A program made the translations under genes and the position numbers. A DNA stretch of 64,000 nucleotides from an uncultured Arcobacteraceae bacterium. Lineage in GTDB: Bacteria; Campylobacterota; Campylobacteria; Campylobacterales; Arcobacteraceae. Positions within the stretch are counted from its first letter, which is position 1. The number at the start of each line of letters is the position of its first letter. The stretch spans positions 1-64,000 of the forward strand of contig CAXHZO010000006.1 of assembly GCA_964022095.1 (NCBI GenBank), written 5' to 3'. Of this stretch, positions 46,707 through 63,094 are shown in pieces. The notes below the pieces were generated by a model. It was not told the origin of the DNA, did not search any database, and was given only the letters and a program-made list of their open reading frames with translations.

Positions 46707-47261
46707 ATGCCTTATATAGTGGCTTCAATTATAGCAGCAGTATCTGCTATGATAATACTCTTTACAAGATATGAAGCTGATGATAGTGCAATTATGTCTC
46801 AAATTGAAAAGATGAAAACAATGCTTTCTATGGTAGATGGTTATGTTAATACATATATCGAATCAGGAGGAGCTTTAGCTGATATTAATTTTCAAGTATT
46901 AGATGATGCTGGTATTTTGATGAACGTAGGGACTGGACAGAGTAATACAAGATTAAATCCAAGTGATGATTCTGGTACTATTGAAACAACTATGCGTTTA
47001 CCAAATGATGATGTAATTTGGCATATAATTCCAAATAAAGCAGATACTAGCTCTTATAAGCTTTTAGTTAACATGAGTGGTGATTCTTCTTTGATGAGTA
47101 AAGCTATATTCTCTGAAGGATTTGTAGGTAGAGAGTATTGTGAAAAAATGTTATTTGGAGAACTGCAAAGAACTCAAAATCAGTTTGATGGTACAGATGA
47201 TTTTGAAGATGATTCAGGCTCAAATGACGATGGAATATTTGTTTGTGTTGTATATAAATAG
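46707..47261 (+). CDS. Pilin-like protein 1 (no class III leader)
   Basis: N-terminal hydrophobic helix, amphipathic helix, C-terminal Cys pair; heads a T4F locus. Confidence 0.6.
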   Translation: MPYIVASIIAAVSAMIILFTRYEADDSAIMSQIEKMKTMLSMVDGYVNTYIESGGALADINFQVLDDAGILMNVGTGQSNTRLNPSDDSGTIETTMRLPNDDVIWHIIPNKADTSSYKLLVNMSGDSSLMSKAIFSEGFVGREYCEKMLFGELQRTQNQFDGTDDFEDDSGSNDDGIFVCVVYK

Positions 47262-47272
47262 ATTTTCTTTGT

Positions 47273-47288
47273 TGTGATTTAAATCACA
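47273..47288. promoter_or_regulatory. Perfect CRP-type palindrome TGTGA-N6-TCACA
   Basis: TGTGATTTAAATCACA in the intergenic region before pilin-like gene 2. Confidence 0.5.
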
Positions 47289-47294
47289 TTTATG

Positions 47295-47310
47295 GGTAGG
47301 TAGGTAGGTA
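47295..47310 (+). repeat. (GGTA)4 simple sequence repeat
   Basis: ggtaggtaggtaggta in an otherwise AT-rich spacer. Confidence 0.8.
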
Positions 47311-47341
47311 TCAAAAAATTTAATATAAAAAGGGTCAAAAA

Positions 47342-48019
47342 ATGCCACAACTGATAGCAATGGTAATAGTAGTAGTTGGAGCTATGATATATATGTTCCA
47401 AACATTTGGTGGAACTGGTGATAAACTTGAAGGTGTTGCACAAAAATCAAGTATAATTACAGAAATTAATAATATAAAAGATGGGTTAATATATGCATCA
47501 GAAGCAGAACAAATAGCACAAACTGCAAGTGCTGCAACTGATACATTTAACACATTATCTGCTTTAGGTGGTTTAAAGTATTTTGATGAGCAAATTAATG
47601 AGCAAGTTGTAGATAATGCAAATGCTACTGATTATCCTACAACTAATGATGATAATGCTTATTATGGTATTTCTTTCGGTGGCCAAAATCCTGATAATCA
47701 AGGTGGAGTAGTTTTAAAACTAGTTTCAATTCAAAATATGGTTCCTGGAATATTTGTTGATTTATCAAGTGGAAATTTAAAAGATAATGCTCCATTTTTA
47801 GAAACACAAATAGCAAAAGACTTAGAGGTAATTGCATATATCGATAGAGGAGCACAAGATGAGACTGATGTTGGATCTACAGCTCAAGATACAACTAGCA
47901 CAACTGGAATACTTACAAGAATTCCTGCCGATAAAGATGCAGCAACTGATGCACAGAGAACTGACGGTAAATTTATTGTTTACTTCAAAGATTTTGGGCC
48001 AGATAAAATAGTTAAATAA
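47342..48019 (+). CDS. Pilin-like protein 2, candidate major subunit
   Basis: MPQLIAMVIVVVGAMIYMF hydrophobic helix then ITEINNIKDGL amphipathic helix; followed by two hairpins. Confidence 0.65.
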   Translation: MPQLIAMVIVVVGAMIYMFQTFGGTGDKLEGVAQKSSIITEINNIKDGLIYASEAEQIAQTASAATDTFNTLSALGGLKYFDEQINEQVVDNANATDYPTTNDDNAYYGISFGGQNPDNQGGVVLKLVSIQNMVPGIFVDLSSGNLKDNAPFLETQIAKDLEVIAYIDRGAQDETDVGSTAQDTTSTTGILTRIPADKDAATDAQRTDGKFIVYFKDFGPDKIVK

Positions 48020-48045
48020 TATTTAGGCTTTCGCCTAAATATTAT
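48016..48045 (+). terminator. Hairpin 1 after candidate major pilin
   Basis: ataatatttaggc-tttc-gcctaaatattat. Confidence 0.75.
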
Positions 48046-48061
48046 ATTCTTTATTTAAAAC

Positions 48062-48095
48062 AAAAACTAAGTGCTAAATATAGCATTTAGTTTTT
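48062..48095 (+). terminator. Hairpin 2 after candidate major pilin
   Basis: aaaaactaagtgcta-aata-tagcatttagttttt. Confidence 0.65.
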
Positions 48096-48117
48096 ATTTT
48101 TACGAAAGGTTTTATAA

Positions 48118-48843
48118 ATGTTCGCGGCAAATATATGGCTAACATCGGCACTTATTGTTACAGCTATATTCTCTGCATCAGCGATGTATAAATCTTATAG
48201 TGACCTAAATGAAGCAAAGCAAATTCAAGAGCACTTTGAAATAATCACTGATATTAAAATACTACTTGCAAAACAATACAATAAAAATCCAAATGAAATT
48301 ACAAGAGATGAAATAATAGCTTATCTACCAAAAGGTGGTAACTGGGATAAGGTTTTACTTTTAGATAGAAATAACGATAGTACATTAAGTGAAGACGAAC
48401 TTGTAAATGATGATGGACAAATAGAAATTGATGAAAATGAAAAAGTAAAACTTCTTGCATTAAAAGCTAAAATGAATAATTCTTTGGCAACTGCAAATAT
48501 GAGTGCAACAGATGGAAAATATACCTTTGATATAGCACACAATAAAAGTATAAAGCAAAAAGATAAAACCATAGAAGATAGTTTAAATAAAGCAATCTAC
48601 TATGCAATACAAGAAGCTATTTATGGCACGCAAACAGATTATACAACCTTATCAGCTGATATGGTAGATGATTTTATTCCTTTATCAGATATGTATCATG
48701 ATTTAAGTGATATAGGTTTAGTAGATGATGATGAAATAACAAAGAAAAAAATATATTTTAAAGCTTTATTAAAACAAAGATTAGAAAAGAGTCTTAATCC
48801 CCAAGAAGCAAAGCTTTATAAACTAATGAAAGATGAATTATGA
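48118..48843 (+). CDS. Pilin-like protein 3 (N-terminal TM helix)
   Basis: MFAANIWLTSALIVTAIFSASAMY then long amphipathic helix and YLPKG. Confidence 0.5.
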   Translation: MFAANIWLTSALIVTAIFSASAMYKSYSDLNEAKQIQEHFEIITDIKILLAKQYNKNPNEITRDEIIAYLPKGGNWDKVLLLDRNNDSTLSEDELVNDDGQIEIDENEKVKLLALKAKMNNSLATANMSATDGKYTFDIAHNKSIKQKDKTIEDSLNKAIYYAIQEAIYGTQTDYTTLSADMVDDFIPLSDMYHDLSDIGLVDDDEITKKKIYFKALLKQRLEKSLNPQEAKLYKLMKDEL

Positions 48844-49568
48844 TTAGACTATTTTTAGGTTCTTTACTATTTATTTCAAGTTTATTTGCTCTAGATACAA
48901 CTTTAGATTTAACAAATTTTGAAGATAGACAAGCTGTAATTCAAGAAGTAAAAAAAATAGTTCTAAAAGAGGAGCAAGTTGCAAAATCATATGAAGAGTA
49001 TATTTTAGAAAACTATAACACTCCAAGTATGCTAAATCTTTTAGATTCTAATTATTTAGGAACATCTTTTTTAACACAAATTGATACAAACTATTTTAAT
49101 AATATATCTATAAGTTCAACTTCAACACTAAGTTATGCTTTAAAAACACAATTTAAAAGTGATGCATATATAAAAAGTCTGTATGAAAGTAATACTTTTA
49201 GAAAAAGAACATTTTATTCTAATAATAAAATAAGTTTTATTTTAAAAGATGATTTTGCTAAGCACTTAGTATATTTGATTCTAAATCAAACAACTGGCTT
49301 TGCAGGTATTGTTGATTGTACAACAATTGGGAGTAAATACTGCAAAAAAGGCGAAGATATTTATATTTATGATGATAAAGATAGAACAAATAAATTAATG
49401 TATTACTACAAAGGCAACTTTAAAACAGGTCCTATCATTATAACTTCAGATAAAACTTTACAAACAACAAATGAAGAGTTCGATTTTTTACCAAAAGGTG
49501 CAATTCTTTATGATGAACTTGGACTTAAGTATGTAAAAACATCAACTGGAATTGAGGATATACAATGA
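48840..49568 (+). CDS. Exported protein with shared PilV-like N-terminal domain
   Basis: Signal ending LFA; KEEQVAKSYEEY..P...L..NYLG..F motif. Confidence 0.55.
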   Translation: MIRLFLGSLLFISSLFALDTTLDLTNFEDRQAVIQEVKKIVLKEEQVAKSYEEYILENYNTPSMLNLLDSNYLGTSFLTQIDTNYFNNISISSTSTLSYALKTQFKSDAYIKSLYESNTFRKRTFYSNNKISFILKDDFAKHLVYLILNQTTGFAGIVDCTTIGSKYCKKGEDIYIYDDKDRTNKLMYYYKGNFKTGPIIITSDKTLQTTNEEFDFLPKGAILYDELGLKYVKTSTGIEDIQ

Positions 49569-50290
49569 AAATACTCATAGTACTTTTTTTATTTTCATCA
49601 ATACTTTTTGCACAGCAGTCACAAATTATAAGACAGCAAAATGTTTTATTTATTCAAAAAATAATTGAAAGTGAAGAAAAAATAGCAAGAAATTTTGAGA
49701 AGTATCTTCTTGAAAACTTCACTATTCCAACAATGGCAGAATTAAAAGTAAATGAATATTTAGGTGAAAATTTCTCTTTAGATAACAGATTTGGAAGCGA
49801 TCTAGCTTTTAAAAATAGTTTAAATCTTCAATTAACTTATGCAATAACAAGTGAAAAAGATGCAAATGATTATAAAAACCTTTTATATAATAGAGATTTA
49901 TATAGAGAAAATACAGTTGTATATTTAGAAAAAAACAGTTCAAATGAAATTAATTATACAAACTCATACACTGAAATTTTACTTCAAAGCAATGAAGCTA
50001 AAACTATTTTAGAAATTTTAAAAAGTGGAAATTCTATAGAATCAAGTTGCACAGATACGCTAATAAATAAATACTGTAATCAAAATCAAAGTGCTATAAG
50101 ATGGTACAATAGTAGTTCACAATGGATTGAATACAACAAAGAAGGATTTGATAAAGCAAGTGTTACAATCTCTACTACTAGTTTATTATTAGATAGTAGA
50201 TTAAGTGTATTACCAATTGGTACGTATATTTATTTAAATAATGGCTCACAATATGTGAAATTAAAAGATAGTATTTTAAAGGTGGATTAA
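49565..50290 (+). CDS. Exported protein, paralogue of 48840..49568
   Basis: Signal ending LFA; SEEKIARNFEKY..P...L..EYLG..F; shared C...YC and LP.G...Y...G..YVK tail. Confidence 0.55.
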   Translation: MKILIVLFLFSSILFAQQSQIIRQQNVLFIQKIIESEEKIARNFEKYLLENFTIPTMAELKVNEYLGENFSLDNRFGSDLAFKNSLNLQLTYAITSEKDANDYKNLLYNRDLYRENTVVYLEKNSSNEINYTNSYTEILLQSNEAKTILEILKSGNSIESSCTDTLINKYCNQNQSAIRWYNSSSQWIEYNKEGFDKASVTISTTSLLLDSRLSVLPIGTYIYLNNGSQYVKLKDSILKVD

Positions 50291-53176
50291 ATCAAAAAGT
50301 TAATTTTTTTAATATCAGTTTTCTTCTTTAATATTGTTCTAGCAAACTCTCAAAATGTAGCGATGATGAATAGCATAAAAAGTGTTATTCAAAAAGAAGA
50401 GTTTATTGCCATTGCTTTAAATAAGTATATTATTCAAAATCTTGAAATACCAAAAAAAGAAAATATTGTTACAAGTAAATATGAATTAGACTGGGATAAG
50501 ATGTTAGTTGATGAATATTTAGGAACTAACTTTAATAAGTACAATCCTATTTTAAAAAGTGATATATCAATTGAGTTTGATAGTAATAATAATGCATTTA
50601 TTAAAGGTGCAGTATCACAAGATAGCCAATATAATGAGAAGTACAACTATTTATATAATTTTTATATAAATAAAATATTTAGAGTAAATACAATTGCACC
50701 GGTTGATAATACTAAAGAAAACTTACTTAAAGGCTCTGAAGTTATCTATTCAGATTTTCAACAAGAGATTATAAACTTACTAAATGCAAATAAAACAGTT
50801 CTTTATCCAAGTCAAAATTGTACAGCTGGAGAATATTTTTATGAAGTTAATGATAATAAGTTGATTTATAAATATTGTAAATCATCATCTAGTAAAATAC
50901 AAGTATATCAAGAAGCTCCGGTATATGTTGAAGATGAAGCAGATTTAAATTATATAAAAACAAAAATTGGTTCAAAAGGTTATGTAAAGAAAAATGGATT
51001 TTGGTATGAATATTATTATCAAGCTGATACAGCTACTCCATGGTTACCAACAGGAAGTGGAACTGTCTTAACTCAAAACTCAGAAGACACAACTATTGAA
51101 GATAGAGTTTTATCATATATTCCTGATTCAAAAGCAATAACAATAAAAGAAGCAGGTGGCTGCATGCTAGCAAATGGTGATATTTTTTGTTGGGGAGATA
51201 ATAGTTATAAAAGAGCAGGTATAGAAAACTATGGACAAATAGATACATCACTAAGTCCTGATTATATAAATACACCTGTAATGTTAAAAGTTCAGATAAA
51301 TGATACCCAAAGAGCAAATAAAAAATGGTATAACAATCCATATAGAATCAAATTTGAATCAATGTTTATGAATGGTAAAAATGTATGTGGTACCTCTCCT
51401 ATTTATGATATTATTGGTACAAATGAAAAGTATGGTGGTGATTTATACTGTAATGGTAGTGTAGATGCACTATATTATGAAAATAATACGGGTTCAATCC
51501 AAACATCAATTTTAAGTAAGAATAGATATTTTGGTTGGGGTAAAGATGACTTTGAAGATAATGATCCAATACAGATAAAAGATGAAGAAGATGGTGGCCC
51601 AGATTCAAATGATAAGTTTATAAGAGATGAAATATATCTAAAAGATGTAGCTATGACTTCAGACACAATTGCTGTTTTATCTGATGATGGTAAAATTTAT
51701 ACTTTAGGTAGAAATTATAATGGTACTTTGGGTCTTGGAAGTGATGATAAATTTATAAATAATTATGAACCAAAACAAGTTGATGTAAATTCTGACGTAT
51801 TTTTTGATCAGATTTTTGTACTAAGAGATATTGATACTTTTGGGGCAATTGATAATAATAAAAACTTTTGGATTTGGGGTGAAAGGGAAGATGGTTACTT
51901 AAATAAACCAACAAGATTAAATGATAGTGGTTTGCAATTTGATCCTGATAAAATTTTTGTAAATAGTAAAGAGTTTTTATTGCAAAGTTTATCTTCAAAA
52001 GTTTTTTATAGAACAGATGCTCAAAAAGATATAGTATCAATAAGTTCAAGTAATATTGCACAAACAGCAATTAGTGCCACATTAATTGAAGAAAATGGTA
52101 CTTGGAAATATTTATATGTAGATGAAGATTTAGATTTAAAAGGTTCATCATCACTTTTAGCATGTGGAAGTAACACTGATACTTCATGCAGCACTATAGA
52201 AAGTAGTTTATTTACTTTTGCACTAGATACATTAAATACTGATTCAAATTTTTTAAATGTATCAACATATAAACTTGATGCTACAGTAGATGAAAGGTCT
52301 GAAGATTTTGAAGGATCAAGTACTAATGACTGGAAGGTAAATACATATAGTGATGATGCTTTTTCTACTTTAATTTCAAATGATAATCCAACTTTATATA
52401 ATCCAACTGAAAGTAGTTCTTCTGATGAAAAAGTAAGAGTTGATCCCACACAAATCTTAGGAAGATTTCAAATTGGAAATCAATCAGTTGATAAAGTATA
52501 TGATTTTGGAATTTCAAATGCAAATAGAAATATTGTTTTTGAATTTGATTTTTATGAAATAGATTCTTGGGATATGGAAAGGTTTAATGTAATACTAAAT
52601 GGTGAAGTATATACAGATGATGGATTCATTCATGATGATCACCCTGACTTTGCAGATGGTAATGATACAGGTATTTATACTTTAAATTTAGGATCAATGT
52701 ATGGAAGTAGTGAAGCGGCATCTAAAAATAATGATGAAAAATACCACTATAAGATAAAAGCTAAACTTGATAGTTTAGGTAAGCTAGATGTAAAACTAAG
52801 AGTTAGAAACTTGCAAAAAGGTGAATATGGCTATAACAAGTGGGCTTATGGTCAAACTTTAGGTGATGAGTCTTGGGGAATTGATAATATTAATATAAAA
52901 ATTAAAGAGATAAATAAACATTTTACCTGTGCTGTAACTGGATTAAATACAGATTCTCAGATGTATTGTTGGGGTGTTGTGGGACGAAGTATACCTATTT
53001 TAAGTACTTCATTATATAATATGGGTAAAATAAGTAGTTTAAATAAATTATTTATTTCAACTAAAGAAGATGAAAGTAAACAAATGTCTTTTGATCGTTA
53101 TGATATAAATGGAAGTTTGTTTTTAAAGTTCCCTACATACATAGGTGGATTTGACTATCCGTTTTATTTTAAATAA
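50291..53176 (+). CDS. Large exported putative tip adhesin: PilV-like N domain, RCC1-like repeats, lectin-like insert; probable ATC start
   Basis: In-frame 24-codon extension before ATG 50363 encodes signal IKKLIFLISVFFFNIVLA; GDIFCWGDN, GKIYTLGRN..GTLGLG, MYCWG repeats. Confidence 0.65.
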   Translation: MKKLIFLISVFFFNIVLANSQNVAMMNSIKSVIQKEEFIAIALNKYIIQNLEIPKKENIVTSKYELDWDKMLVDEYLGTNFNKYNPILKSDISIEFDSNNNAFIKGAVSQDSQYNEKYNYLYNFYINKIFRVNTIAPVDNTKENLLKGSEVIYSDFQQEIINLLNANKTVLYPSQNCTAGEYFYEVNDNKLIYKYCKSSSSKIQVYQEAPVYVEDEADLNYIKTKIGSKGYVKKNGFWYEYYYQADTATPWLPTGSGTVLTQNSEDTTIEDRVLSYIPDSKAITIKEAGGCMLANGDIFCWGDNSYKRAGIENYGQIDTSLSPDYINTPVMLKVQINDTQRANKKWYNNPYRIKFESMFMNGKNVCGTSPIYDIIGTNEKYGGDLYCNGSVDALYYENNTGSIQTSILSKNRYFGWGKDDFEDNDPIQIKDEEDGGPDSNDKFIRDEIYLKDVAMTSDTIAVLSDDGKIYTLGRNYNGTLGLGSDDKFINNYEPKQVDVNSDVFFDQIFVLRDIDTFGAIDNNKNFWIWGEREDGYLNKPTRLNDSGLQFDPDKIFVNSKEFLLQSLSSKVFYRTDAQKDIVSISSSNIAQTAISATLIEENGTWKYLYVDEDLDLKGSSSLLACGSNTDTSCSTIESSLFTFALDTLNTDSNFLNVSTYKLDATVDERSEDFEGSSTNDWKVNTYSDDAFSTLISNDNPTLYNPTESSSSDEKVRVDPTQILGRFQIGNQSVDKVYDFGISNANRNIVFEFDFYEIDSWDMERFNVILNGEVYTDDGFIHDDHPDFADGNDTGIYTLNLGSMYGSSEAASKNNDEKYHYKIKAKLDSLGKLDVKLRVRNLQKGEYGYNKWAYGQTLGDESWGIDNINIKIKEINKHFTCAVTGLNTDSQMYCWGVVGRSIPILSTSLYNMGKISSLNKLFISTKEDESKQMSFDRYDINGSLFLKFPTYIGGFDYPFYFK

Positions 53177-53184: not shown

Positions 53185-54837
53185 ATGCATAAAGTATTAA
53201 ACGTCACTCTTGTTATATCTATGGTTATTTCTTTTATAGGATGTAGCCCCAAAAGTTATCATAATGAAATGATTGATAATGCAAAGAGAAGTTTAGATAA
53301 AAAAGATTATGAGAACATTACAGAATCATATACAAAAGGTTTAGTAACTGAAGTTCCAAAACAAAAAGAGTATATATCAATATTAGAAGATAAATCTTTA
53401 GGAGATATTTTAAAAGAAATGGAACTTCTAGATAATAACTTTTATTTTCTAAAAAGTAGTGATATTCTTATTCCCAAAAGTAGAATCAAAATTCATAGTA
53501 TGAATGAATTAAATCAGTATTTAAATGCTGTTTTAGATAAAGAGCTATTTATTAAAAAAAGTGGGTCAATTTATCTTGTAAAGCTTTTAAATGTAAGTGA
53601 AACAAAAAAACTTTCTCTTGATAGAATTCCTTTTAAATTAGATGGTCAAATTTCAGTTGAAGAATTAATTAAATTAATAACTTCAGAATCTGGATATGAA
53701 GTATCAATTGGAAATTATATAAAAGATAGATTTGGTTTTCAAAATAGTATTGTAAATATTAGATCAAACAGTTTAAAAGATGCATTGAACTCTTTAGCCT
53801 ATGCAAAAAATGTTTATGTTGATGTTAATTATGACCAAGAGATGATAAATATTAGTAGATATAAAGATATGGTTGTTGAGTTAAATATTCCACTACTAGA
53901 TATAAAATCAACAAATGAAACATCAAGTCAAGAAACATCAGGTGAGAGTAGTATTAAAAATAGTTCACAAATTGTTTTATATGATGAGCTAGATAAAATG
54001 TTAAAAAATATTATATCGACAGATATAATTTCTACTTATCATATTGATAAAGCTAGTGGATTAATATTCTTAAAATCAACAAGAAGTGTTGAAAATGCAG
54101 TTAGAACTGTAGTAAAAGCATATGAAGCAAGTTTTGCAAAAGAAGCAACTATAGAGTTTGAAAGAATAGAGCTTGCTTTAAATAAAAGTAGAAAATATGG
54201 AATTGCTTCAATTACTGATAATAGACAAGGAAATACTGATTCTGGAGTATTAAAATCTCTTACAAGTGAAGGGGCAATTAGTTTTGCAAGTGATAATGCA
54301 ACTAGACTTCTTCAAGTAGCTGCAACTGCAAATAATGATATCGGTAAGGTTTTAAATTACAGTAAAAATGTTATTGTATTAAAAAATAATATTCCATCTG
54401 TTCAATCAATTAGTCAAAATACTGATTATATAGAAAAAATAGAAACAACAGTGACAGAAGGTGTTAGTACATCAGAAGCTACTGTTAACACTATAAAAGA
54501 TGGAACTTCTGTAACTGCTATGGCAAAAATTTCTAGAGATAAGATTTTTTTAAATCTTACTCCAACAATTAAAAGATTAATTAGTATCTCTGAAGCAAAA
54601 GTTGGAGATTCAACAATTCAACTTCCAGAGTATAATGACCAAAGTTATAACATTTCAAGAGAAGTTAAACTTGGTGAAACATCTATTGTAGGTTCTATTA
54701 TTATACATGATGATGCAAAAGAGTATCAAGGTATTTTACCTTTAGAAGGTTTTGCGGTTGGTGGAACAGATTCTAAATCATATGTAAGAAGAGAGATTAT
54801 TTATATAGTTACATTAAAGAATATTAAAGGCTTTTAA
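53185..54837 (+). CDS. Lipoprotein secretin (PilN/BfpB/MshL-like)
   Basis: Lipobox FIGC; N domains; C-terminal NN.P...., IFLNLTP, IQLP, KLGET..VG pattern; next to platform and ATPase. Confidence 0.75.
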   Translation: MHKVLNVTLVISMVISFIGCSPKSYHNEMIDNAKRSLDKKDYENITESYTKGLVTEVPKQKEYISILEDKSLGDILKEMELLDNNFYFLKSSDILIPKSRIKIHSMNELNQYLNAVLDKELFIKKSGSIYLVKLLNVSETKKLSLDRIPFKLDGQISVEELIKLITSESGYEVSIGNYIKDRFGFQNSIVNIRSNSLKDALNSLAYAKNVYVDVNYDQEMINISRYKDMVVELNIPLLDIKSTNETSSQETSGESSIKNSSQIVLYDELDKMLKNIISTDIISTYHIDKASGLIFLKSTRSVENAVRTVVKAYEASFAKEATIEFERIELALNKSRKYGIASITDNRQGNTDSGVLKSLTSEGAISFASDNATRLLQVAATANNDIGKVLNYSKNVIVLKNNIPSVQSISQNTDYIEKIETTVTEGVSTSEATVNTIKDGTSVTAMAKISRDKIFLNLTPTIKRLISISEAKVGDSTIQLPEYNDQSYNISREVKLGETSIVGSIIIHDDAKEYQGILPLEGFAVGGTDSKSYVRREIIYIVTLKNIKGF

Positions 54838-54839
54838 TA

Positions 54840-55856
54840 ATGAGTATGTTCTCTGATCCCTATGAGTCTTTTTTATTAGATTATTTAATCACAAAATTAG
54901 AAAATGGTTCTAATACAAGAAGAGCTTTAATTTTATATGGTGAGCAAATAACAAAAGAAACAAAATTTAAACAAAGACTAAAAGGTGCAATCAGAGATAT
55001 GGAGATTGGTAAGCACTCCCTTGAAGCAATCTTACATAAGCATAAATTTTTAAATGCATTTCAATATAGTTTAGTTGTTAATAGTACTAGTACTATTGAT
55101 GGACTAAAACTAGTTCAATCTTTTAAAAAAGCTAACTCAAATTTATTAGCAAAAATGATCAATCCAATATTTGTTCCTCTTGGAATTATAATTGGTACTT
55201 TTTATGGATTAATTTTATATTTAGGGATGTTAGAAAAAGAGGTGATTTCTTTAAAAAAATTAAACCCAGATGTTGAACAGTTTTTAGGAATACCTGGATA
55301 CTTTACATATAATGTTGCTTATATTGGCTTAGGTTTATCCATATTTGTTACTGCGTTTATATTTTTTGGATATATATATTGTGAGAAGTATAGACCAGCA
55401 TGGCTTTATGGGGTCTTTAAAACACAAGCTTTTTCAGATGGAAGATTTATGTTTAGAATCTTAAATGGTATGTTAAGTGCTGGTATTTCATTTCATAAAA
55501 CATCATTGATATTATCAAAAGATTATTTTAAAGTTGGATTAAGACCTTTTTTCCATGAACTATCAGATATTATTAGTAGAAATAAAAAGCTATTTCTAGT
55601 GTTTGAAAAATATAATTTTCCCACAATTATTACTGCTGATATTAAGCTTTCAGAATTAAGTAAAACTAGTTTTGCTGAAGTAACAAAGGCTTTATATGAG
55701 ACTTGTGATACAATGTATGAAAAAAATATCAATTATATGGTGTTACAGTGGAAGTTTTTCTTTTGGTTAATTGCTATGTTAATAACAGTAATTATTGGTT
55801 CTGATGTGATTAATCTTGTGATTAGTACATTTACATTTAAAACTTTATATCAGTAG
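54840..55856 (+). CDS. PilC/GspF-like inner-membrane platform protein
   Basis: Two cytoplasmic helical domains (LENG..., MLSAGIS) separated by TM segments; context. Confidence 0.7.
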   Translation: MSMFSDPYESFLLDYLITKLENGSNTRRALILYGEQITKETKFKQRLKGAIRDMEIGKHSLEAILHKHKFLNAFQYSLVVNSTSTIDGLKLVQSFKKANSNLLAKMINPIFVPLGIIIGTFYGLILYLGMLEKEVISLKKLNPDVEQFLGIPGYFTYNVAYIGLGLSIFVTAFIFFGYIYCEKYRPAWLYGVFKTQAFSDGRFMFRILNGMLSAGISFHKTSLILSKDYFKVGLRPFFHELSDIISRNKKLFLVFEKYNFPTIITADIKLSELSKTSFAEVTKALYETCDTMYEKNINYMVLQWKFFFWLIAMLITVIIGSDVINLVISTFTFKTLYQ

Positions 55857-55871: not shown

Positions 55872-57560
55872 ATGTTAACAGATTTTTTTAAAAATAAAAC
55901 ATCTTTAAAATTGTTAAAAAAATTAAAAGGTAATAAAAAAACAATATCTCCTAAAAAAACTTTTAATACAAAAACATTAACACAAGTTTTTAATGAACAA
56001 AAAGAATCACTTCTTAATGTTTTCAAATCAAAAGAAGATGCAGATGCAGATCTTGGGGTATTAATTGAAGATGTAATTAAAAATAAATTTGAACTTTCAG
56101 GTGGTTATGGAGATTTAATTGCTAATGAAGATAAGTATGAGGATTTTGTTAGAAGTTTAGGTTACGAATACTATGCAACATATAATGAACTATCAAAATA
56201 TTATCAAGATACATCCTTTCAATTAGATGAAAAGAAACTTGAGTTTTGTACAACTATGTATATTATTACTTTAGAAGATAAAAAAACTAAAAATAAGATC
56301 TTAGGTATAAGAGATGTTGTTAACTTAGACTTTGATGTATTAAGTAAGTTTTATTTTACAAAGATTGTTGTTTTAGGTGAGGGCGTATTATCTTCAGTAT
56401 TTGGTGAAGATAGAGAGATTATTTTTGGCTCAAATGCTGATACAGATAATGATGATGAAATCAATAAGTATTTTGATAAGATGATGGGGCAAGCTATTTT
56501 ATTAGGAGCTTCAGATATTCACATCCAAAAAACAAATAGATATGCAACATTGTGGTTTAGAATTGATGGTGTAAAAGTTGATATGGGTACTATGCCTATT
56601 GCAATTGCAAAAACATTAAAAAGAAGACTTGTAACTATGGCAGACCAAGAAGATTCAGATTATGAATCAATTAATGGTGTGATTAATTATGAGTATGGTA
56701 AAAAAACTATTAAGTTCAGACTTGGTTTGATTAACTCAAAACTAAACTTCTCTTTAGTTATGAGGATGATCGGTGGAAAAGGTGTTGTTTCTCATAAACT
56801 AGAGGGATTAAACTATCCAAAAGAGTCAGTTGATATTCTAAAAAACCTTACAAGATATGCCAATGGTATGATTCTTATTACGGGTCAAGTTGGTTCTGGT
56901 AAAACACACTTAATGTACGCACTTTTAAAACAATTAGCACAACAACAACAGTATGTAGTAACAATTGAAGATCCAGTTGAGTATGTGGATGATGCCTTCT
57001 TCCAAATTGATCTTTCAGAGTTTGCAAGTGCAAGTGATGAGTTTAAGTATGGTTACCCAGAAGCAGTTGTTGATATCTTAAGACAAGATTCAAATATCAT
57101 CCTAATTGGGGAAACAAGAGAACCTCAAACTGCATCACAACTTGTAAATGCATCAAACTTAGGTCAGTTAGTATTTTCTACTATGCATACCAACTCAGCT
57201 CCTGCAACAGTATCTAGAATGACAAGTTCACTTGGAATAAATGAAGGTGATATTGTCGATAACTTAAGAGGTATTGTATCTCAAAGACTTGTAAGAAAAC
57301 TGTGTGGCTACTGTAAAGTAGAAGATGAAGAAGGTGGTTATAAAAAAGTTGGATGTGATGAGTGTAATGATTCAGGATTTAAAGATAGGGTTCCTATTGC
57401 AGAAGTTGTAAGATTTAAAATTGGTCATGGTGGAGATTTTGAAAACCCTGCTGAGTATATGACAGTTGAGAAAGCATGTATGGCTCAATATCATGCTGGT
57501 CTTATTACAAAAGAAGATGCAATGGCAATTATTAGAGGGGAGGAAGTATGGTACGATTAG
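55872..57560 (+). CDS. PilB/GspE-family assembly ATPase
   Basis: ASDIHI, FRIDG, GQVGSGKT, TIEDPVE, LRQD..ILIGETR, STMHTN, SQRLVRKLC, tetra-Cys. Confidence 0.93.
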   Translation: MLTDFFKNKTSLKLLKKLKGNKKTISPKKTFNTKTLTQVFNEQKESLLNVFKSKEDADADLGVLIEDVIKNKFELSGGYGDLIANEDKYEDFVRSLGYEYYATYNELSKYYQDTSFQLDEKKLEFCTTMYIITLEDKKTKNKILGIRDVVNLDFDVLSKFYFTKIVVLGEGVLSSVFGEDREIIFGSNADTDNDDEINKYFDKMMGQAILLGASDIHIQKTNRYATLWFRIDGVKVDMGTMPIAIAKTLKRRLVTMADQEDSDYESINGVINYEYGKKTIKFRLGLINSKLNFSLVMRMIGGKGVVSHKLEGLNYPKESVDILKNLTRYANGMILITGQVGSGKTHLMYALLKQLAQQQQYVVTIEDPVEYVDDAFFQIDLSEFASASDEFKYGYPEAVVDILRQDSNIILIGETREPQTASQLVNASNLGQLVFSTMHTNSAPATVSRMTSSLGINEGDIVDNLRGIVSQRLVRKLCGYCKVEDEEGGYKKVGCDECNDSGFKDRVPIAEVVRFKIGHGGDFENPAEYMTVEKACMAQYHAGLITKEDAMAIIRGEEVWYD

Positions 57561-58297
57561 TAATAACTGATTTTGCTACAAAAGAAGATAATGAATCATT
57601 TTATTTAAATGACGAATTTGATTCGCAATCTCAAATCTTTACATACGACTCCTTTAAAAAAAATAGTGTATATCTTTCTAAATATGATGTTCACGATGAT
57701 ATATACTCTTTAAATTTGCTATCAAAGAAGCATCTAGATAAAAATCAATTCTTAATTCATATAGCTAATGGCGAGTTTATTATTTTATTTAATCACAAGA
57801 CAGTTTATTCTGCAAAAATAAATCAAAACTTTATTACAGATGATATGATTAAATCAATTTTAATTACTAAACATATAGTAATGCTTTCAAGTGGTGGTTC
57901 TATTGATAAGCTATACTATGTAATTAATTCTAGATATAAAAGTGCCATTGAAAATATTTTAAAACAAAACACAAGAAATGAAAAAGGTCAAATTGTAGCT
58001 CAACCCCTTGGTGAAATTAAAGATTTAGTTAAACCTTTAGTTGAATTAGACAGTATGAAAGGCCATGTTTTAAAAAATACCTTTTCATTAATTTTTGTTG
58101 CAGGAATTCTATGGACGATGTTTTATGGATTAGATATTCTTAGTAACAAGTTTTTAGGAAAAGAATCATTAAGCAGTCTTACACGAGAGTTAAAAGTTCA
58201 AAATAGATTAGTAAAAAGACAAGAAGTTTTATATAACAAAAGTATAAATGAGTATAAAAAACTAACTGAATGTATAACAACAGAAGGTACAAAATAA
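57548..58297 (+). CDS. Membrane-anchored accessory protein (alignment-complex-like)
   Basis: Cytoplasmic N domain, one TM near the C-terminus, coiled coil; follows ATPase. Confidence 0.45.
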   Translation: MVRLVITDFATKEDNESFYLNDEFDSQSQIFTYDSFKKNSVYLSKYDVHDDIYSLNLLSKKHLDKNQFLIHIANGEFIILFNHKTVYSAKINQNFITDDMIKSILITKHIVMLSSGGSIDKLYYVINSRYKSAIENILKQNTRNEKGQIVAQPLGEIKDLVKPLVELDSMKGHVLKNTFSLIFVAGILWTMFYGLDILSNKFLGKESLSSLTRELKVQNRLVKRQEVLYNKSINEYKKLTECITTEGTK

Positions 58298-58298
58298 A

Positions 58299-58793
58299 AT
58301 GGTTAGTATCAGTAAAAAAACAGTATCTTTAGTAGTAAAAATAGGTTTTACGGTATTAGTTTTATATACTGTTGGATTTATGTTTTATAAAATTGGAAGT
58401 TACTATAAAACATATTATGAAAAACAAAAACTAATGCAAGAACTGCAAATTAAGAAAAATGAAACAAGTAGTTTAAAAAGACAAATAAAAATCAATAAAG
58501 CTAGAATAGAAAGTGTTAAAAATAGTTATATATCAAAAGAGGAATTAGGTATAAAAATAAAAGATATTTTTCAAAGAATGTCTGTATTTGATTATGATTT
58601 AAGATATTTAGATGCAAAACAAATGTGTGTAGATAGATATATATTAGTAACTCAATTAACTTACCAAAGTGAAAATGGTAAAACTGCAGGTGAAGGTATT
58701 TTATCATATATAGGAGAAGTTCAAAAAAGTGATAAAAACGAAAGTTTATATTTTGTAGATTATATAACAAAACCAAAAGGTAATAGAAAATGA
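58299..58793 (+). CDS. Bitopic accessory protein (PilN/PilO-like architecture)
   Basis: N-terminal TM, coiled coil, small alpha/beta domain. Confidence 0.45.
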   Translation: MVSISKKTVSLVVKIGFTVLVLYTVGFMFYKIGSYYKTYYEKQKLMQELQIKKNETSSLKRQIKINKARIESVKNSYISKEELGIKIKDIFQRMSVFDYDLRYLDAKQMCVDRYILVTQLTYQSENGKTAGEGILSYIGEVQKSDKNESLYFVDYITKPKGNRK

Positions 58794-60982
58794 GACTAGT
58801 TGTTTTATTTATTTTAACTTTTAATATTTTAATTGCCACTGCTTTAGACCCATTAACTCTTGCAAAAGTAAAAAAAGCAGTACAAAAAGAAGAGTTAGTA
58901 GCTAAAGCATACAAAGAGTATTTATATGACAAGGGTGCAATTCCTTCAATAAATACTTTAATTTCCAATAATTATTTACCAAAGGGATTTAGTAGTATTA
59001 ATCCTTTTGGTAAGCAAATGATAATTAATGTTAATATAATCGAAAATACAATTCCTGATAGTGTAAAAATAAATGCATATGATTATTACTATACAAGTAA
59101 GTATAGAACAAATACTGTTGAACCCCTAAATTTAGATAGTGATGAAGTAAAAATCAAATTAAGTAAAAAAGAACAAATTATTTTTGAAAAAAGAAGTGAA
59201 ATTGATAATGCTAGTCCCGTAAGTGAATATAAATTAGAAGATGGAGTTCTAAGTTGGTATGATTCAAATGGAAATTATATGTTCTCTTATGATGGAGATA
59301 AACTTATTGTAGATAGTACCGTAACAATTTTAGATGCAGCTTCTAACTTTGCTTCTAACTTTGATACTATGACTTCAGGTTTTAGGCATGCTGGTCAAAC
59401 AATACTTCAAGAAAGTAATGGTGTAGTTGAAGATTATATAACTCTTGAGGAAGGTGCAGTTGCTTTAAATGAGTTTACAAAAAGTTATGGAGCTACTAAA
59501 ATACAGTTTACAAGACGTGCTGGGGGTATGATTGTAAATGGAGATATTTATACTTGGGGAAATAATGAAAATAGAATTACAAGTATAAAAAGTGATGATT
59601 TAACAGGAGATAGAAGTGATACAGCTCCTGTTATTAATGCTTTAGTAAGAGTAAAAGCTAATGTACCATCTCGCAGTGTAGATGGAGTAAATTTAGGAGA
59701 TGTTACTTCTGTGAAATATTTTTCTTCTCCTATGCGACCAAGGTTTGTTGATTTTCATGCAACTGTTTATTCTAGTGTTTGTGGAGTTACAAGTAAAGGT
59801 GAGCTTTTTTGTGGTGGAACAACAGGAAAAGATCAATCTTTTGGAACAATGTTTACTCACCTAGATAAACAGGGATATAACGATGAAATGTTATATCGAA
59901 GTACATTTTTTGATGGAGCAGCTGATTCACCAAAAGCTAAAAAAGTATTTTCAAATAACCAGATATGGCATATCTTAAGTGAAGAGGGAGATATTTATAG
60001 ATGGGGTTATGATCATTCTGGTTTTGCTGGAACAGGAAACAAAAGATGGAACTATTATAGTAGAAATACTCATCTTGACCCAGAGATAATACCTGATACA
60101 GGTGCTAAATTTGATGATATAACTTATCTTTTAACTATTGGATACAGAAAAATTGGTGCATTATCAACTACTGGTGATATTTATATTTGGGGTGTTGAAA
60201 CTAAAAACTCTAATAATTATGATTGTACTGAAACTTGGGAATATAAATATTATAATTTATGTGAACCAACTAGAGTAACAACATCAAACTCTACAATGAC
60301 TGAAGATCTTACTTTTAAAAGTATTAAAGGTGGTCTTGAGGCATTTATAGCTCAAGCAACAAATGGAAACTATTATAAAATATATCATCCTTTAAGAAAG
60401 AAGATTCAAGTTGAGTCTTTAAATGAAAAGATTAAAACCTATTCTGAGTATAATGAAGCAGATGATAGTAGTATTTTATCAATAGATTTATCAAGTAAAT
60501 TAAATGGTTCTACTTTAGAAATAAACAAAGGAATTGTTTGGGTAAATGGAAACAATGAATTAAAAGGTGATTATTTTACTGCTGATAATAGTATAGATAG
60601 TTTATTTAAAGATGCAATATCTAAAATAAAATGGAAAAAAATAAAAGTAATTCAAGATGATAATGGTATGTGTGGAATTGATGTCAATAATCAAATGTAT
60701 TGCTGGGGTGTAATGTCATATTATAGAGGAGATACTCCTAGTTCTGATGATATTGATAGAATGGGTAATACTTTTATGATACCTGTTTTTAATTCTAATT
60801 TATATGATTTAAAAAAAGATTTTTTAGTGGTTGAAGGTGGTCTTGATGGAAGTAGAGGTTATCTTACAAATATGACATCAGATGAATGGAAAACTACAAA
60901 TAGTGATGGATATAGTGGAGCATTTTTTATGAAATACCCTACATATGTTGGTGGATTTAATTTTGAATTTGAGTTTAAATAA
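58790..60982 (+). CDS. Second large exported adhesin-like protein, paralogue of 50291..53176
   Basis: KEELVAKAYKEY, LISNNYLPKGFSSINPFG, GDIYTWGNN, GDIYRWG, GDIYIWG, MYCWG, shared C-terminus. Confidence 0.65.
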   Translation: MRLVVLFILTFNILIATALDPLTLAKVKKAVQKEELVAKAYKEYLYDKGAIPSINTLISNNYLPKGFSSINPFGKQMIINVNIIENTIPDSVKINAYDYYYTSKYRTNTVEPLNLDSDEVKIKLSKKEQIIFEKRSEIDNASPVSEYKLEDGVLSWYDSNGNYMFSYDGDKLIVDSTVTILDAASNFASNFDTMTSGFRHAGQTILQESNGVVEDYITLEEGAVALNEFTKSYGATKIQFTRRAGGMIVNGDIYTWGNNENRITSIKSDDLTGDRSDTAPVINALVRVKANVPSRSVDGVNLGDVTSVKYFSSPMRPRFVDFHATVYSSVCGVTSKGELFCGGTTGKDQSFGTMFTHLDKQGYNDEMLYRSTFFDGAADSPKAKKVFSNNQIWHILSEEGDIYRWGYDHSGFAGTGNKRWNYYSRNTHLDPEIIPDTGAKFDDITYLLTIGYRKIGALSTTGDIYIWGVETKNSNNYDCTETWEYKYYNLCEPTRVTTSNSTMTEDLTFKSIKGGLEAFIAQATNGNYYKIYHPLRKKIQVESLNEKIKTYSEYNEADDSSILSIDLSSKLNGSTLEINKGIVWVNGNNELKGDYFTADNSIDSLFKDAISKIKWKKIKVIQDDNGMCGIDVNNQMYCWGVMSYYRGDTPSSDDIDRMGNTFMIPVFNSNLYDLKKDFLVVEGGLDGSRGYLTNMTSDEWKTTNSDGYSGAFFMKYPTYVGGFNFEFEFK

Positions 60983-60997
60983 GGAAAAAGAGGAAAC

Positions 60998-62014
60998 ATG
61001 AAAAGAAGTATAGTTTTTATTAGTTTATTAATGATTTTAAATACAGGGATGTATGCAAATGAAATGGAAAATGTTGATAAACTAGATGTTTTAGATAAGC
61101 AATCAAAAGAGTTTTTTAAAGCAATTACAGGTTTAGAAAAAGATTATCTAGAAGAGCAAATAACTAGTATTGAAAGCAAAAAAAATCAACCTGTACAAAA
61201 TAATAATACCACACAAAATAGAGCAATTACTCCTTCTATTCCTGAAGTTACAAAAGAAGAAAAAGAAAAAAATATATTTAAACATCAAAATGAAATAGCT
61301 AGACTTACAACTGATTTTACAAGAACAAAACAACTAAAAGATATTAGAATAAAAAGTATGTACTCTTTTAATGGAAAAAGTTATGTAGTTTTAAAACTTG
61401 ATAATAAAACAGCAAACACTACAGGTGAATTAAGCTCAAGTATCGAAGGACGATATCTAAGTGGAGATTATATTTTAGGTCATAAAATTACATCAGTAAA
61501 TGTTAGAACAAAAAGCATAAAACTATATAAAAAACTTGATAAAGAGTATGGATACAATATATATTTAAGTAATTATGGTATTAGTGTTAGTGATTTAATT
61601 AAGTATGAAATTGATGAAAAAAAACAGAAGAAAAGTAGTAAAACTGTACAAAGAGAAGAGAATAAAGTAAAAAATGCTTTTGCTAATTTAGCTGAATCAA
61701 GTGTTGAGGTAAATACAAATGAAACTTTAAATATACAAAATTTATCAATGCAAAAAGATTTAGTTGATAAGTGTTTATATACAGTAAAAGTTTCAAATCT
61801 AAATGTTAGAAATGCAACACAATTAGATGCTAGAATATTAAGAATATTAAGAATTGATGATCAATTTACAATTGTACAAAAAAGTGGCCAGTGGGTTGAG
61901 CTTGATACAATATATAAGAAAAAATCAGGTGATGTAATGCCAGTAGAAAATAAAAGTAACTGGGTAAATATAACAACTCAAAACGTAAAAGCAACTAATG
62001 AAAGTTGTATATAG
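60998..62014 (+). CDS. Exported protein with C-terminal bacterial SH3-like domain (possible PilP analogue)
   Basis: Signal ending MYA; coiled coil; VKVSNLNVRN...QWVEL...NWV. Confidence 0.6.
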   Translation: MKRSIVFISLLMILNTGMYANEMENVDKLDVLDKQSKEFFKAITGLEKDYLEEQITSIESKKNQPVQNNNTTQNRAITPSIPEVTKEEKEKNIFKHQNEIARLTTDFTRTKQLKDIRIKSMYSFNGKSYVVLKLDNKTANTTGELSSSIEGRYLSGDYILGHKITSVNVRTKSIKLYKKLDKEYGYNIYLSNYGISVSDLIKYEIDEKKQKKSSKTVQREENKVKNAFANLAESSVEVNTNETLNIQNLSMQKDLVDKCLYTVKVSNLNVRNATQLDARILRILRIDDQFTIVQKSGQWVELDTIYKKKSGDVMPVENKSNWVNITTQNVKATNESCI

Positions 62015-62023
62015 GATAATATT

Positions 62024-63094
62024 TTGGAATATATAAATAGTTGTAAAGAGGAAATATCATTACGTTTAAATAAAATAGAACAAGAAATAGTTCCTTTAAT
62101 AAATGATTACGAAACATTTTTTAATATTGAAAAAGTTTTCTCAAGTGAAAATGGTGGGAAAACTAGATTAAATAGACAACTATTTAATGAAAATCATGAG
62201 TCTATTGTTGAAAAAATAGTACAAATAAATGATATTTTTGATGATGCATTAGATATTATAAAATCAAATATTCAATCAATATTAGGTGAATTTAAAGAGT
62301 TTAATAAAGTAGATTTAATTAATTTAATATTTGATGACTCAAACTTTTTAGAGATATTAGAATTAGACTTAAATAATCAAGTTGTAACAAAAGCAAAAAG
62401 AAAGCAAGTTGTAAATGAAATAGGAGCTTTATTAGCTTTAAAAAATAGAATTTTTAATTTGAAATATTATTTAAGTATGTTTGATACAAGTATTTTTGAT
62501 AAACTATTAAATAAGTTAGGTGTTGAAGACTTGATAAATAGCTCTGTGATATTTGAAATTATTGATTCATATGGCTTACAGTTTGATGAATTAACAAAAT
62601 TTAAAGAAGAGCTAAAAACACTTCAACCAATTGAGGAAAAAGTAATTAGTTTTCAATTTTTAAACTCTATTTTAGAACTACATAAAAGAAGAAGTGAAAA
62701 CTTTATTTATGCAAATACTAGATATAAAATTACCATTGATTATAACAATGAATTAGAATTAAGAAAAGCTATTTTAGTAAATAAAGCTTATTTAGAAAAT
62801 ATCATTTCTTATTTTATTGAACAGTCTTGTATGGATTTAGTAAAACAAGAGTTAAAAAAAGGAAAAATCCAGAAGTTTATTGATATTTCTATTCAAAAGA
62901 TTAAAGGGAAATATATTTTAACTGTAAAAAACAATGGATTTGAAGTTAAGAATATTTATAATCTTTTTGTTTCTGATGTTGATAATAAATATATATTAGA
63001 ATCTAAAAACTTAGCAGATTCTATGAATGGAAATATTGAAATATATCCAATACCTGGTGAAGGAATGGTTTACTCTTTTATTTTTAAACCATAA
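62024..63094 (+). CDS. Cytoplasmic protein with degenerate HATPase_c-like C-terminus
   Basis: LTVKNNG and MNGNIEIYPIPGEGMVYSF resemble kinase ATP-binding domain; N and G2 boxes missing. Confidence 0.5.
   Translation: MEYINSCKEEISLRLNKIEQEIVPLINDYETFFNIEKVFSSENGGKTRLNRQLFNENHESIVEKIVQINDIFDDALDIIKSNIQSILGEFKEFNKVDLINLIFDDSNFLEILELDLNNQVVTKAKRKQVVNEIGALLALKNRIFNLKYYLSMFDTSIFDKLLNKLGVEDLINSSVIFEIIDSYGLQFDELTKFKEELKTLQPIEEKVISFQFLNSILELHKRRSENFIYANTRYKITIDYNNELELRKAILVNKAYLENIISYFIEQSCMDLVKQELKKGKIQKFIDISIQKIKGKYILTVKNNGFEVKNIYNLFVSDVDNKYILESKNLADSMNGNIEIYPIPGEGMVYSFIFKP

Follow-up and report, generated by a model that had tools for sequence, protein, structure and literature searches.

A candidate type IV filament operon of T4b-like build with leaderless pilin-like subunits in an uncultured Arcobacteraceae bacterium

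We analysed a 64,000-nucleotide stretch of DNA from an uncultured marine Arcobacteraceae bacterium (assembly GCA_964022095.1, contig CAXHZO010000006.1, positions 1 to 64,000; referred to as the window), in which a first-pass annotation, made from the letters alone, had proposed a new type IV filament system encoded by 14 co-oriented, tightly spaced genes. We found exactly this arrangement: 14 open reading frames (ORFs), named here g01–g14, occupy positions 46707–63094, all on the + strand, with intergenic spacing ranging from a 13-base overlap to 98 bases. The analysis supports the view that this operon is a real, uncharacterised branch of the type IV filament superfamily with a type IVb (T4b)-like build, and its unusual feature is that the pilins are leaderless. 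The genes and features of the operon are the following:

46707–47261, + strand: g01, 184 aa, leaderless pilin-like protein, paralogue of g02, hydrophobic helix at residues 1–23
47342–48019, + strand: g02, 225 aa, leaderless, putative major pilin with a hypervariable part behind the nearly invariant N-terminal MPQLIAMVIVVVGAMIYMF
48016–48095, + strand: two terminator-like hairpins directly 3' of g02, from a consensus scan
48118–48843, + strand: g03, 241 aa, bitopic, hydrophobic helix at the N-terminus
48840–49568, + strand: g04, 242 aa, Sec signal, predicted pilin-fold module without a membrane helix, second beta-rich domain
49565–50290, + strand: g05, 241 aa, paralogue of g04 according to tblastn cross-matches and alignments
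50291–53176, + strand: g06, 961 aa from ATC 50291 (937 aa from ATG 50363), Sec signal, g04-type module, RCC1-like beta-propeller, further domains
53185–54837, + strand: g07, 550 aa, putative lipoprotein secretin, remote family member (MshL/PilN-like)
54840–55856, + strand: g08, 338 aa, short-form GspF/PilC-type platform of the inner membrane
55872–57560, + strand: g09, 562 aa, PilB/GspE-type assembly ATPase
57548–58297, + strand: g10, 249 aa, cytoplasmic domain, one transmembrane (TM) helix at 179–199, short periplasmic tail
58299–58793, + strand: g11, 164 aa, N-terminal TM helix at 7–30 and periplasmic domain
58790–60982, + strand: g12, 730 aa, Sec signal, g04-type pilin module, RCC1-like beta-propeller, C-terminal peptide as in g06
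60998–62014, + strand: g13, 338 aa, exported, weak C-terminal bacterial SH3 domain
62024–63094, + strand: g14, 356 aa, cytoplasmic, co-conserved with the operon

Twelve of these genes are as the first-pass annotation had listed them: a clear PilB/GspE ATPase, a PilC/GspF-like gene, a lipoprotein secretin-like gene, two bitopic accessory genes (g10 and g11, by topology), three genes with an N-terminal hydrophobic helix (g01, g02 and g03) and four exported paralogues (g04, g05, g06 and g12). The last group carries Sec-type signals as expected, with the correction that the start of g06 is moved to ATC 50291. The list had left uncovered g13, which is exported and bears a weak SH3_3 match, and the cytoplasmic g14. 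It had further claimed that neither a prepilin peptidase nor PilT lies in the locus, and indeed no prepilin-peptidase or PilT-specific model matched any of the 14 proteins. Eleven of the 14 have no family match apart from weak RCC1 or SH3 matches.

The core machine is most readily recognised by its ATPase. The g09 product matches Pfam T2SSE (PF00437) with 217 bits (cut-off 24.9), and its GSGKT, IGETRE and TMHTNS sequences are invariant, with the Walker A, Walker B and His-box-like motifs all preserved, as are the four cysteines Cys478, 481, 495 and 498. On these grounds g09 is clearly predicted to be a PilB/GspE-type ATPase. Its closest relatives of solved structure are GspE (150 bits) and PilB (141 bits), with BfpD at 71 bits. 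The protein stays below the curated equivalog cut-offs for TfpB (198 of 850 bits), PilB (192 of 676) and GspE (191.7 of 630), and its PilT-family score of 137.7 bits lies well below the respective cut-off and below its own PilB/GspE scores. No T2SSE_N/MshEN domain was matched in g09 at E ≤ 0.01.

The platform protein g08 displays hydrophobic segments at residues 106–132, 157–182 and 299–333, i.e., the GspF-like three-TM pattern. The window copy scores 19.4 bits against T2SSF (PF00482; E 1e-3), below the cut-off of 25.2. From 89 listed homologues, 20 were taken for spread, including all 7 with a precomputed PF00482 match, and 16 of these 20 matched T2SSF at E ≤ 0.01, 6 of them above the cut-off, at two repeat positions (13–80 and 205–300). 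Through these homologues, the sequences assign the g08 family to the GspF/PilC platforms with two T2SSF repeats. A profile search of PDB sequences with g08 gave nothing significant, the best hit being the PilC N-domain at E 0.21.

The g07 protein is a putative, remote member of the secretins. Cys20, placed in a lipobox-like FIGC motif, is invariant in 8/8 orthologues, all of which also match the MshL model TIGR02519 (best E 8.2e-15), and three of the eight match TIGR02520 (PilN, IncI family). The window protein reaches 47.6 bits against the MshL model, for which the curated cut-off is 250.2. It has no Pfam Secretin (PF00263) match at E ≤ 0.01, and nothing significant was returned by a profile search of PDB sequences.

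As for g10 and g11, no family match was found for either. The architecture and position of g10 suggest an ATPase anchor like GspL, PilM-N or BfpC, while the topology of g11 points to an alignment protein like PilO or GspM. A complex prediction for g09 residues 50–195 with g10 residues 1–178, run without controls, scored 0.12 against a mark of 0.32.

The feature that sets the operon apart resides in its first three genes. We found that g01, g02 and g03 open directly with a hydrophobic helix and that an in-frame stop is located 0–12 codons 5' of the ATG in 23/23 copies (8, 8 and 7 loci, respectively), the distance being 0–12 codons for g01 and 4–11 codons for g02, each in 8/8 loci. The gap between this stop and the ATG is filled by the ribosome-binding site. 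Because the stop is so close, no class III leader is possible on any of the three proteins, whichever start codon is used. The features by which class III signal peptides are recognised, namely Gly-1, Glu5, the N-methylation motif and the charged leader itself, are likewise missing. None of the three matches N_methyl, whereas three pseudopilin genes in the type II secretion system (T2SS) locus of the same genome do. There is no Gly at position −1 of g01 or g02. Positions 1–26 of g02 contain no acidic residue, hence no Glu5, in 66 sequences, and M1 and P2 are invariant in this set.

Structure prediction agrees with the pilin-like appearance of g02. Its AF2 model, built with 66 sequences (pLDDT 91.9, pTM 0.86), consists of a helix at residues 2–54 and an alpha/beta head, a pilin "lollipop". 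We compared it with a library of 48,161 representative chains in a whole-library VIA search, which is independent of Foldseek, and the top 15 chains were all pilins or type IV filament proteins. The highest scores belonged to CofA of the type IVb pilus of enterotoxigenic Escherichia coli (ETEC; Z 7.5, rmsd 4.3, 153 aligned) and to TcpA (Z 7.1), with which the model aligned over 153–156 residues; PilS scored Z 5.0. Among 371 Foldseek candidate chains that were rescored, the top five were pilins (Z 6.6–3.9) and the first unrelated chain had Z 3.4. The top Foldseek match in the PDB was Clostridioides difficile PilA1 at E 0.31. As modelled, g02 has a pilin fold that is closest to the T4b pilins. 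Together with the upstream stops, this bears out the leaderless pilin-like subunits that had been suspected from the letters of the window.

The conserved helix of g02 is followed by an exceptionally variable remainder. Over 2145 pairs, mean pairwise identity is 0.91 in residues 1–48 and 0.47 in the rest. Compared with its same-genus orthologue, g02 is 46% identical, whereas the other 13 genes are 62–93% identical. Among the matches listed, g02 forms 490 clusters at 90% identity vs. 89 for g08, a ratio that is affected by gene length and by the extent of the listing. We regard this pattern as a putative signature of a surface-exposed major subunit. In turn, g01 is related to the g02 family by hhalign (probability 86.5%, E 4.6e-6, 133 columns), has two invariant cysteines (C145 and C180) and is likely a minor pilin. 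The g03 protein may be a minor pilin or may instead act in assembly; hhalign linked it neither to g01/g02 nor to the g04 family, and an Atlas search with g03 gave no usable match. The two hairpins behind g02 would fit attenuation after a major pilin gene.

The exported paralogues g04, g05, g06 and g12 share an N-terminal domain of ~220 aa. Their N-termini, judged by eye, resemble ordinary Sec signals with Ala at −1, and if these are cleaved, the four proteins would carry pilin modules without a membrane helix. The AF2 model of g04 (79 sequences, pLDDT 93.8) comprises a hydrophobic helix at residues 3–16, a loop, a helix at 27–58 packed on a sheet, and the second beta-rich domain. When residues 22–136 were compared with the same 48,161 chains, the top 14 were all pilins, pseudopilins or IncI-type PilM, and the alignment with C. 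difficile PilA1 gave Z 7.7 and rmsd 3.1 over 98 aligned residues. This part of g04 is thus predicted to adopt a pilin fold. In the Atlas feature search, Shufflon_N (PilV) came second-best for g04, with scores of 0.86 and 0.84, which we take as a lead only. The g04 family is small, with 188 representatives in 1.84 billion proteins; its domain invariably sits at the N-terminus, on its own or with 600–1300 aa fused behind it.

In g06 and g12, the g04-type module is joined to a propeller. The most likely start of g06, as read from the sequence, is ATC 50291, immediately 3' of the TAA stop of g05: an AAGGTGG ribosome-binding site lies 7 bases upstream, and translation from this codon adds a signal peptide which the ATG at 50363, chosen by the ORF finder, would remove. 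The same short ATG ORF is seen in the same-genus g06 orthologue. Against RCC1, g06 scores 33.3 bits (cut-off 21.7), and against WD40_RLD 47 bits (cut-off 150); g12 reaches 44 bits with WD40_RLD, also below the cut-off. The propeller homologue in another carrier (G015) scores 170 bits, above the cut-off. Both proteins end in a strictly conserved peptide, FLK[FY]PTYIGGFDYxFYFK in 7/7 orthologues of g06 and F[FL][MLI]KYPTY[IV]GGFN[FY]EFxFK in 7/7 of g12, which can be merged into FLK[FY]PTYIGGF[DN][YF]xFxFK in 14/14 sequences. A 2026 paper shows by experiment how PilC/PilY1 uses its C-terminal ~10 residues to complete, by beta-strand addition, the sheet of a minor pilin from the PilK family and to license assembly (PMC13533445). 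By analogy, the shared C-terminal peptide of g06 and g12 is suggestive of such an anchor.

The operon closes with g13 and g14. SH3_3 was matched in 4/4 scanned g13 orthologues (E 2.3e-5 to 0.015, all below the cut-off), and a profile search of PDB sequences with g13 gave nothing significant; a PilP/GspC-like connector would be our guess. For g14, which was found in 6/7 related loci, there is no Pfam, NCBIfam or PDB match. By eye, its C-terminal ~70 residues resemble the end of a histidine-kinase ATP-binding domain, for which no database match gives support.

The gene order is well conserved. In 6/7 related loci that were fetched, which represent four genera, all 14 genes are collinear, which makes the operon more than a chance assembly; the flanking genes are thus co-conserved with the core, as the first-pass annotation had expected of a genuine system. 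The seventh locus, G015, is rearranged and diverged: it retains g07–g11, g01, g02 and one propeller protein, and g03, g13 and g14 were not detectable there. We identified the platform gene in 39/184 Arcobacteraceae species genomes (37/152 of those of good quality), distributed over 10/22 genera. Of the named organisms in the homologue listings, Malaciobacter pacificus comes closest, with a g08 that is 93% identical; Poseidonibacter parvus and Arcobacter roscoffensis are further named carriers there. Across the phylum, sampled evenly, 10/401 genomes possess the platform gene, and outside the close group there are only three remote cases, namely G008, G236 and G317. It was found in 0/118 and 0/158 genomes of the two largest sampled families, and no match to g09 above 36% identity was present in 16 genomes from other families of the order.

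The three remote genomes encode proteins 23–29% identical to the secretin, platform and ATPase of the window, located as follows:

G008, contig C2, 246000–265900 (L047): T4b-like locus with a lipoprotein-like secretin, prepilins with long charged leaders and an SLT transglycosylase
G236, contig C6, 54000–73900 (L049): T4b-like locus with a lipoprotein-like secretin and prepilins with long charged leaders
G317, contig C10, 5500–25400 (L048): T4b-like locus with a distant relative of the trio among VirB6, VirB8, VirB9 and VirB10 genes and a TraH/SLT gene

The G008 secretin aligns with g07 over its full length (25% identity, E 1.7e-41). Against Pfam Secretin, it scores 26.8 bits and the G317 secretin 31.2 bits, for a cut-off of 27.5. 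Both G008 prepilins give weak N_methyl matches, and the G008 and G236 loci are the nearest leader-bearing kin of the window system. The G317 locus, from a different family of Campylobacterota and with g04-family proteins (hhalign probability 88.8%), has the appearance of a thin pilus linked to conjugation. Its counterpart of g10 compares with g10 at an hhalign probability of 8.7%, and comparison of its two short candidate pilins with g01 and g02 by hhalign returned nothing. One further gene of this locus resembles SSB by its first residues, and a short ORF at 13529–13963 opens directly with a hydrophobic helix.

In an ATPase tree of 18 rows, the g09 clade joins the proteins of G008, G236 and G317 (support 89/83) and stands apart from the genome's own GspE, from its second ATPase, from E. 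coli GspE and from HofB. This small tree has IncI PilQ, on a long branch, as its sole T4b reference; MshE, TcpT and BfpD are not among its rows.

The genome itself (G000) harbours further related machinery. A canonical T2SS with N_methyl pseudopilins is encoded on contig C24, a second GspE/GspF pair, which may be Cts-like, on C22, a lone secretin on C2 and, outside the operon, a single A24 prepilin peptidase on C4. Such a peptidase is present in 181/184 genomes of the family, so its co-occurrence with the operon is uninformative. The intact T2SSE genes of the genome number three only, and none encodes a PilT-type ATPase. Among the 20 proteins scanned from the genome's two other loci, the pseudopilins of the T2SS locus gave the sole N_methyl matches.

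We compared the operon with the known systems, beginning with the T4b pili. Like the CFA/III (Cof) pilus of ETEC, the toxin-coregulated pilus of Vibrio cholerae and the PilL–PilV thin pilus of Salmonella Typhi and IncI-R64, the window system is encoded by a single operon. Further likenesses are the putative lipoprotein secretin, the pilin of ~200 aa modelled closest to T4b pilins, and the lack of PilT in the genome; some T4b pili have no retraction ATPase. The IncI locus, in particular, contains the same parts: secretin, ATPase, platform and pilin. Yet the window lacks the long leader, Glu5 and an in-locus peptidase, whereas the IncI locus has its own peptidase, and it adds Sec-exported pilin modules and beta-propeller proteins. 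The g09 ATPase is nearer to GspE and PilB (150 and 141 bits) than to BfpD (71 bits) or IncI PilQ (86 bits, 25% identity), and is not joined with the long-branched PilQ in the tree. The platform gene is located 5' of the ATPase gene in the window and 3' of it in the IncI locus. When IncI PilN, PilR, PilS, PilV, PilM and PilL, and the genome's own GspF, GspD and GspG, were compared with alignments from the locus by hhalign, all probabilities were below 9%, which is no argument against homology as single-sequence templates are weak.

The mannose-sensitive haemagglutinin (MSH) system provides the best secretin model for g07. MSH pilins carry normal leaders. Judged by hidden Markov model (HMM) scores, the operon has neither an MshL equivalog (47.6 vs. 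250.2 bits) nor an ATPase with the MshE-type N-terminal domain, and the other Msh models match none of its 14 proteins. A partial likeness is that MSH loci, too, are described as devoid of a peptidase gene and as presumably borrowing the enzyme (PMC6668835). The T2SS is set apart by the GspE equivalog score, which g09 does not reach, by the separate canonical locus on C24 and by the position of g09 outside the GspE branch. As for the Campylobacter transformation system Cts, orthologues with the same neighbours in the Campylobacter and Helicobacter families were not found in the genome samples given above. The loci of G008, G236 and G317 are nearest in secretin, platform and ATPase and include g04-type proteins, but differ in their leader-bearing prepilins (G008, G236), SLT transglycosylase (G008, G317) and type IV secretion system (T4SS) genes (G317).

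The large propeller proteins find their parallel in PilY1/PilC of type IVa pili. Similar to these, g06 and g12 are large, Sec-exported, bear a beta-propeller and a strictly conserved C-terminus, and are encoded among pilin genes. In contrast, their propeller is RCC1-like, the PilY1 family model is absent from their Pfam matches, and they carry an N-terminal pilin-fold module which PilY1 does not have.

In sum of these comparisons, no component of the window reaches the curated cut-off of any named system. The statement of the first-pass annotation that the operon matches no known gene set holds at this level, and needs qualifying in that the overall build resembles T4b pili and the distant kin are T4b-like. 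The ATPase joins neither GspE nor the genome's second ATPase in our small tree, and we found no description of such a system in the literature on Arcobacter/Arcobacteraceae or on leaderless pilins (article text). Pili and secretion systems did not turn up in a term search of a comparative Arcobacteraceae genome paper (PMC10336517). The legend of a figure in a flagellar-motor preprint refers to type IV pilus gene clusters in Campylobacterota (PMC11870540) and may bear on novelty.

Taken as a whole, we consider it reasonably probable that the product of the operon is a type IV filament machine, confined to its lineage and T4b-like in build, with pilins that do not depend on a peptidase and with a Sec-exported adhesin tip. 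The g09 ATPase would sit on the g08 platform, probably held by the bitopic g10 and g11, and the machine would extract from the inner membrane its anchored pilins, with g02 as the major subunit and its paralogue g01 as the minor one. These would then polymerise into a filament that exits through the putative lipoprotein secretin g07. As no class III leader precedes the pilins, assembly should need no cleavage by a prepilin peptidase. The g04, g05, g06 and g12 proteins would most likely form a priming or tip complex, in which g06 and g12 would contribute RCC1-like propellers as adhesin heads and might be anchored through their conserved C-terminal strand, much as PilY1/PilC are. In marine settings, the system would likely serve to attach cells to surfaces, particles or hosts.

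A bolder version can be offered tentatively: that this is the first type IV filament lineage with mature-like leaderless pilins assembled without prepilin peptidase. Here, the secondary amine exposed by Met excision before Pro2 could replace the N-methylated residue 1, no Glu5 salt bridge would be needed, the Sec-exported modules would prime and cap the filament, and the propeller adhesins would be locked by their C-terminal strand. From what is known of canonical pilins, excision of Met before Pro2 or Ala2 would be expected to expose a secondary or a small N-terminus, and a missing Glu5 to entail a different packing of the subunits.

Several observations weigh against the peptidase-independent filament. 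Canonical pilus assembly depends on Glu5 and an N-methylated residue 1, and subunits devoid of both may not polymerise in the known manner. The genome has a prepilin peptidase, so that its involvement is possible. The structural Z-scores are middling (≤7.7), Foldseek gave no PDB match at E ≤ 0.001 for the g02 or g04 model, and the pilin call reflects the dominance of pilins among the hits rather than a single strong match. The roles of g03, g10, g11, g13 and g14 are read from topology alone, cleavage of the Sec signals of g04, g05, g06 and g12 was judged by eye, and the RCC1-type matches of the window proteins are mostly below cut-offs. The operon also shows decay in two carriers: the ATPase gene is split by a TGA in G023 (L027, contig C49), and the platform gene of G054 (C1:755286–757618) is in two pieces ~1.3 kb apart. 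The filament is, so far, a prediction from genes and models. Contigs from three RNA-labelled libraries (two studies) match pieces of the operon at 90–99% identity (g01, the g01–g02 junction, g04–g05 and g07–g14), with almost no coverage of the variable part of g02; these contigs are no proof of transcription, as DNA carry-over is possible.

The surroundings of the operon are chromosomal and of housekeeping nature. Its 3' neighbour is purT, on the opposite strand, and two features precede it:

45445–46305: mqnP, the 5' neighbour of the operon
46344–46420: tRNA-Arg (TCG), between mqnP and g01

The 46 kb upstream contain housekeeping genes, and no conjugation, relaxase or integrase gene was detected there. 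We considered the operon as a genomic island and dropped the idea. Only loci of the window's own genus (2/8) have the tRNA-Arg here, so that it is no general insertion site, and the GC content of the operon (26–30%) equals that of the remainder of the window. An empty site could not be defined, the purT flank in four operon-free genomes of the family sharing no neighbours with the window.

Among other explanations, the one that survives best, though we find it improbable, is T2SS-like secretion or surface display, in which g01/g02 would form a short periplasmic pseudopilus that pushes g06 and g12 (perhaps also g04 and g05) through the secretin, and no long pilus would be made. It draws on the fact that g09 scores highest against GspE among solved structures, on the lack of a retraction ATPase and on the Sec-exported operon proteins, which make plausible cargo. 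The fold does not discriminate, as it is shared by pilins and pseudopilins, and PulG, EpsG and EpsI/J are among the matches. However, the genome already has a canonical T2SS, the hypervariability of g02 behind its conserved helix suggests surface exposure, unlike a periplasmic piston, and the structures nearest to the g02 model are CofA and TcpA, two large T4b pilins. Moreover, the putative cargo itself has pilin-fold modules and a PilY1-like conserved C-terminus.

We think it quite unlikely that the operon encodes, instead of a general adhesin, a mating or DNA-handling pilus, such as the IncI/R64 thin pilus, whose PilV adhesins stabilise mating pairs, or a DNA-uptake pilus. The VirB and TraH/SLT neighbours of the G317 trio, the g04-family proteins in that T4SS-linked locus, the PilN-family matches of three g07 orthologues and the second-best PilV shufflon leads for g04 would speak for it. 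They are countered by the chromosomal position of the window operon, between mqnP/tRNA-Arg and purT and with no mobility genes upstream, by the hhalign comparisons with IncI PilV, PilM, PilL, PilS and PilR, which lend no support, and by the separate GspE/GspF pair on C22, a more obvious candidate for DNA uptake.

Equally doubtful, in our view, is that the pilin-like proteins still use the genome's peptidase, for methylation or a non-canonical cleavage, or that g01 and g02 are assembly parts and the true subunits are canonical prepilins encoded elsewhere: the peptidase on C4, its near-universal presence in the family, the borrowing surmised for MSH loci and the leader-bearing prepilins of G008 and G236 would allow it, but there is no leader, Gly-1 or Glu5 to be recognised, g02 shows the variability of an exposed major subunit and accompanies the machine even in the diverged G015 locus, and the only N_methyl matches, within the scan described above, are the T2SS-locus pseudopilins.

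To our knowledge, cleavage of the leader by prepilin peptidase and the presence of Glu5 are treated as defining every type IV filament, and models for detecting such systems rely on these features. If a filament of peptidase-independent pilins is indeed made, it would be a natural machine in which to test what leader cleavage and Glu5 are for. It would also show that pilin-fold parts can join a filament by a second, Sec-dependent route, and bring a new family of propellers under the beta-strand-addition rule of tip adhesins. As its pilins are unmatched, its platform is below the cut-off and its secretin is found by remote HMM only, standard models of the TFF/TXSScan kind would probably miss the system. 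About a fifth of the species of Arcobacteraceae, abundant marine bacteria, carry it, and the homologue list includes Aliarcobacter skirrowii and Arcobacter porcinus, which are associated with animals and food. On account of this distribution, the system is a candidate colonisation factor.

Two other regions of the window deserve mention. At 32162–33668, an enzyme of the MbnB/TglH/ChrH family (293 bits), which modifies ribosomally synthesised and post-translationally modified peptides (RiPPs), is encoded beside an NGO1945_C-domain protein, and the pair may be a small RiPP locus. At 23603–31152, genes for a response regulator and a histidine kinase are followed by a resistance-nodulation-division (RND) efflux set consisting of OEP, an HlyD-type adaptor and an AcrB-type pump.

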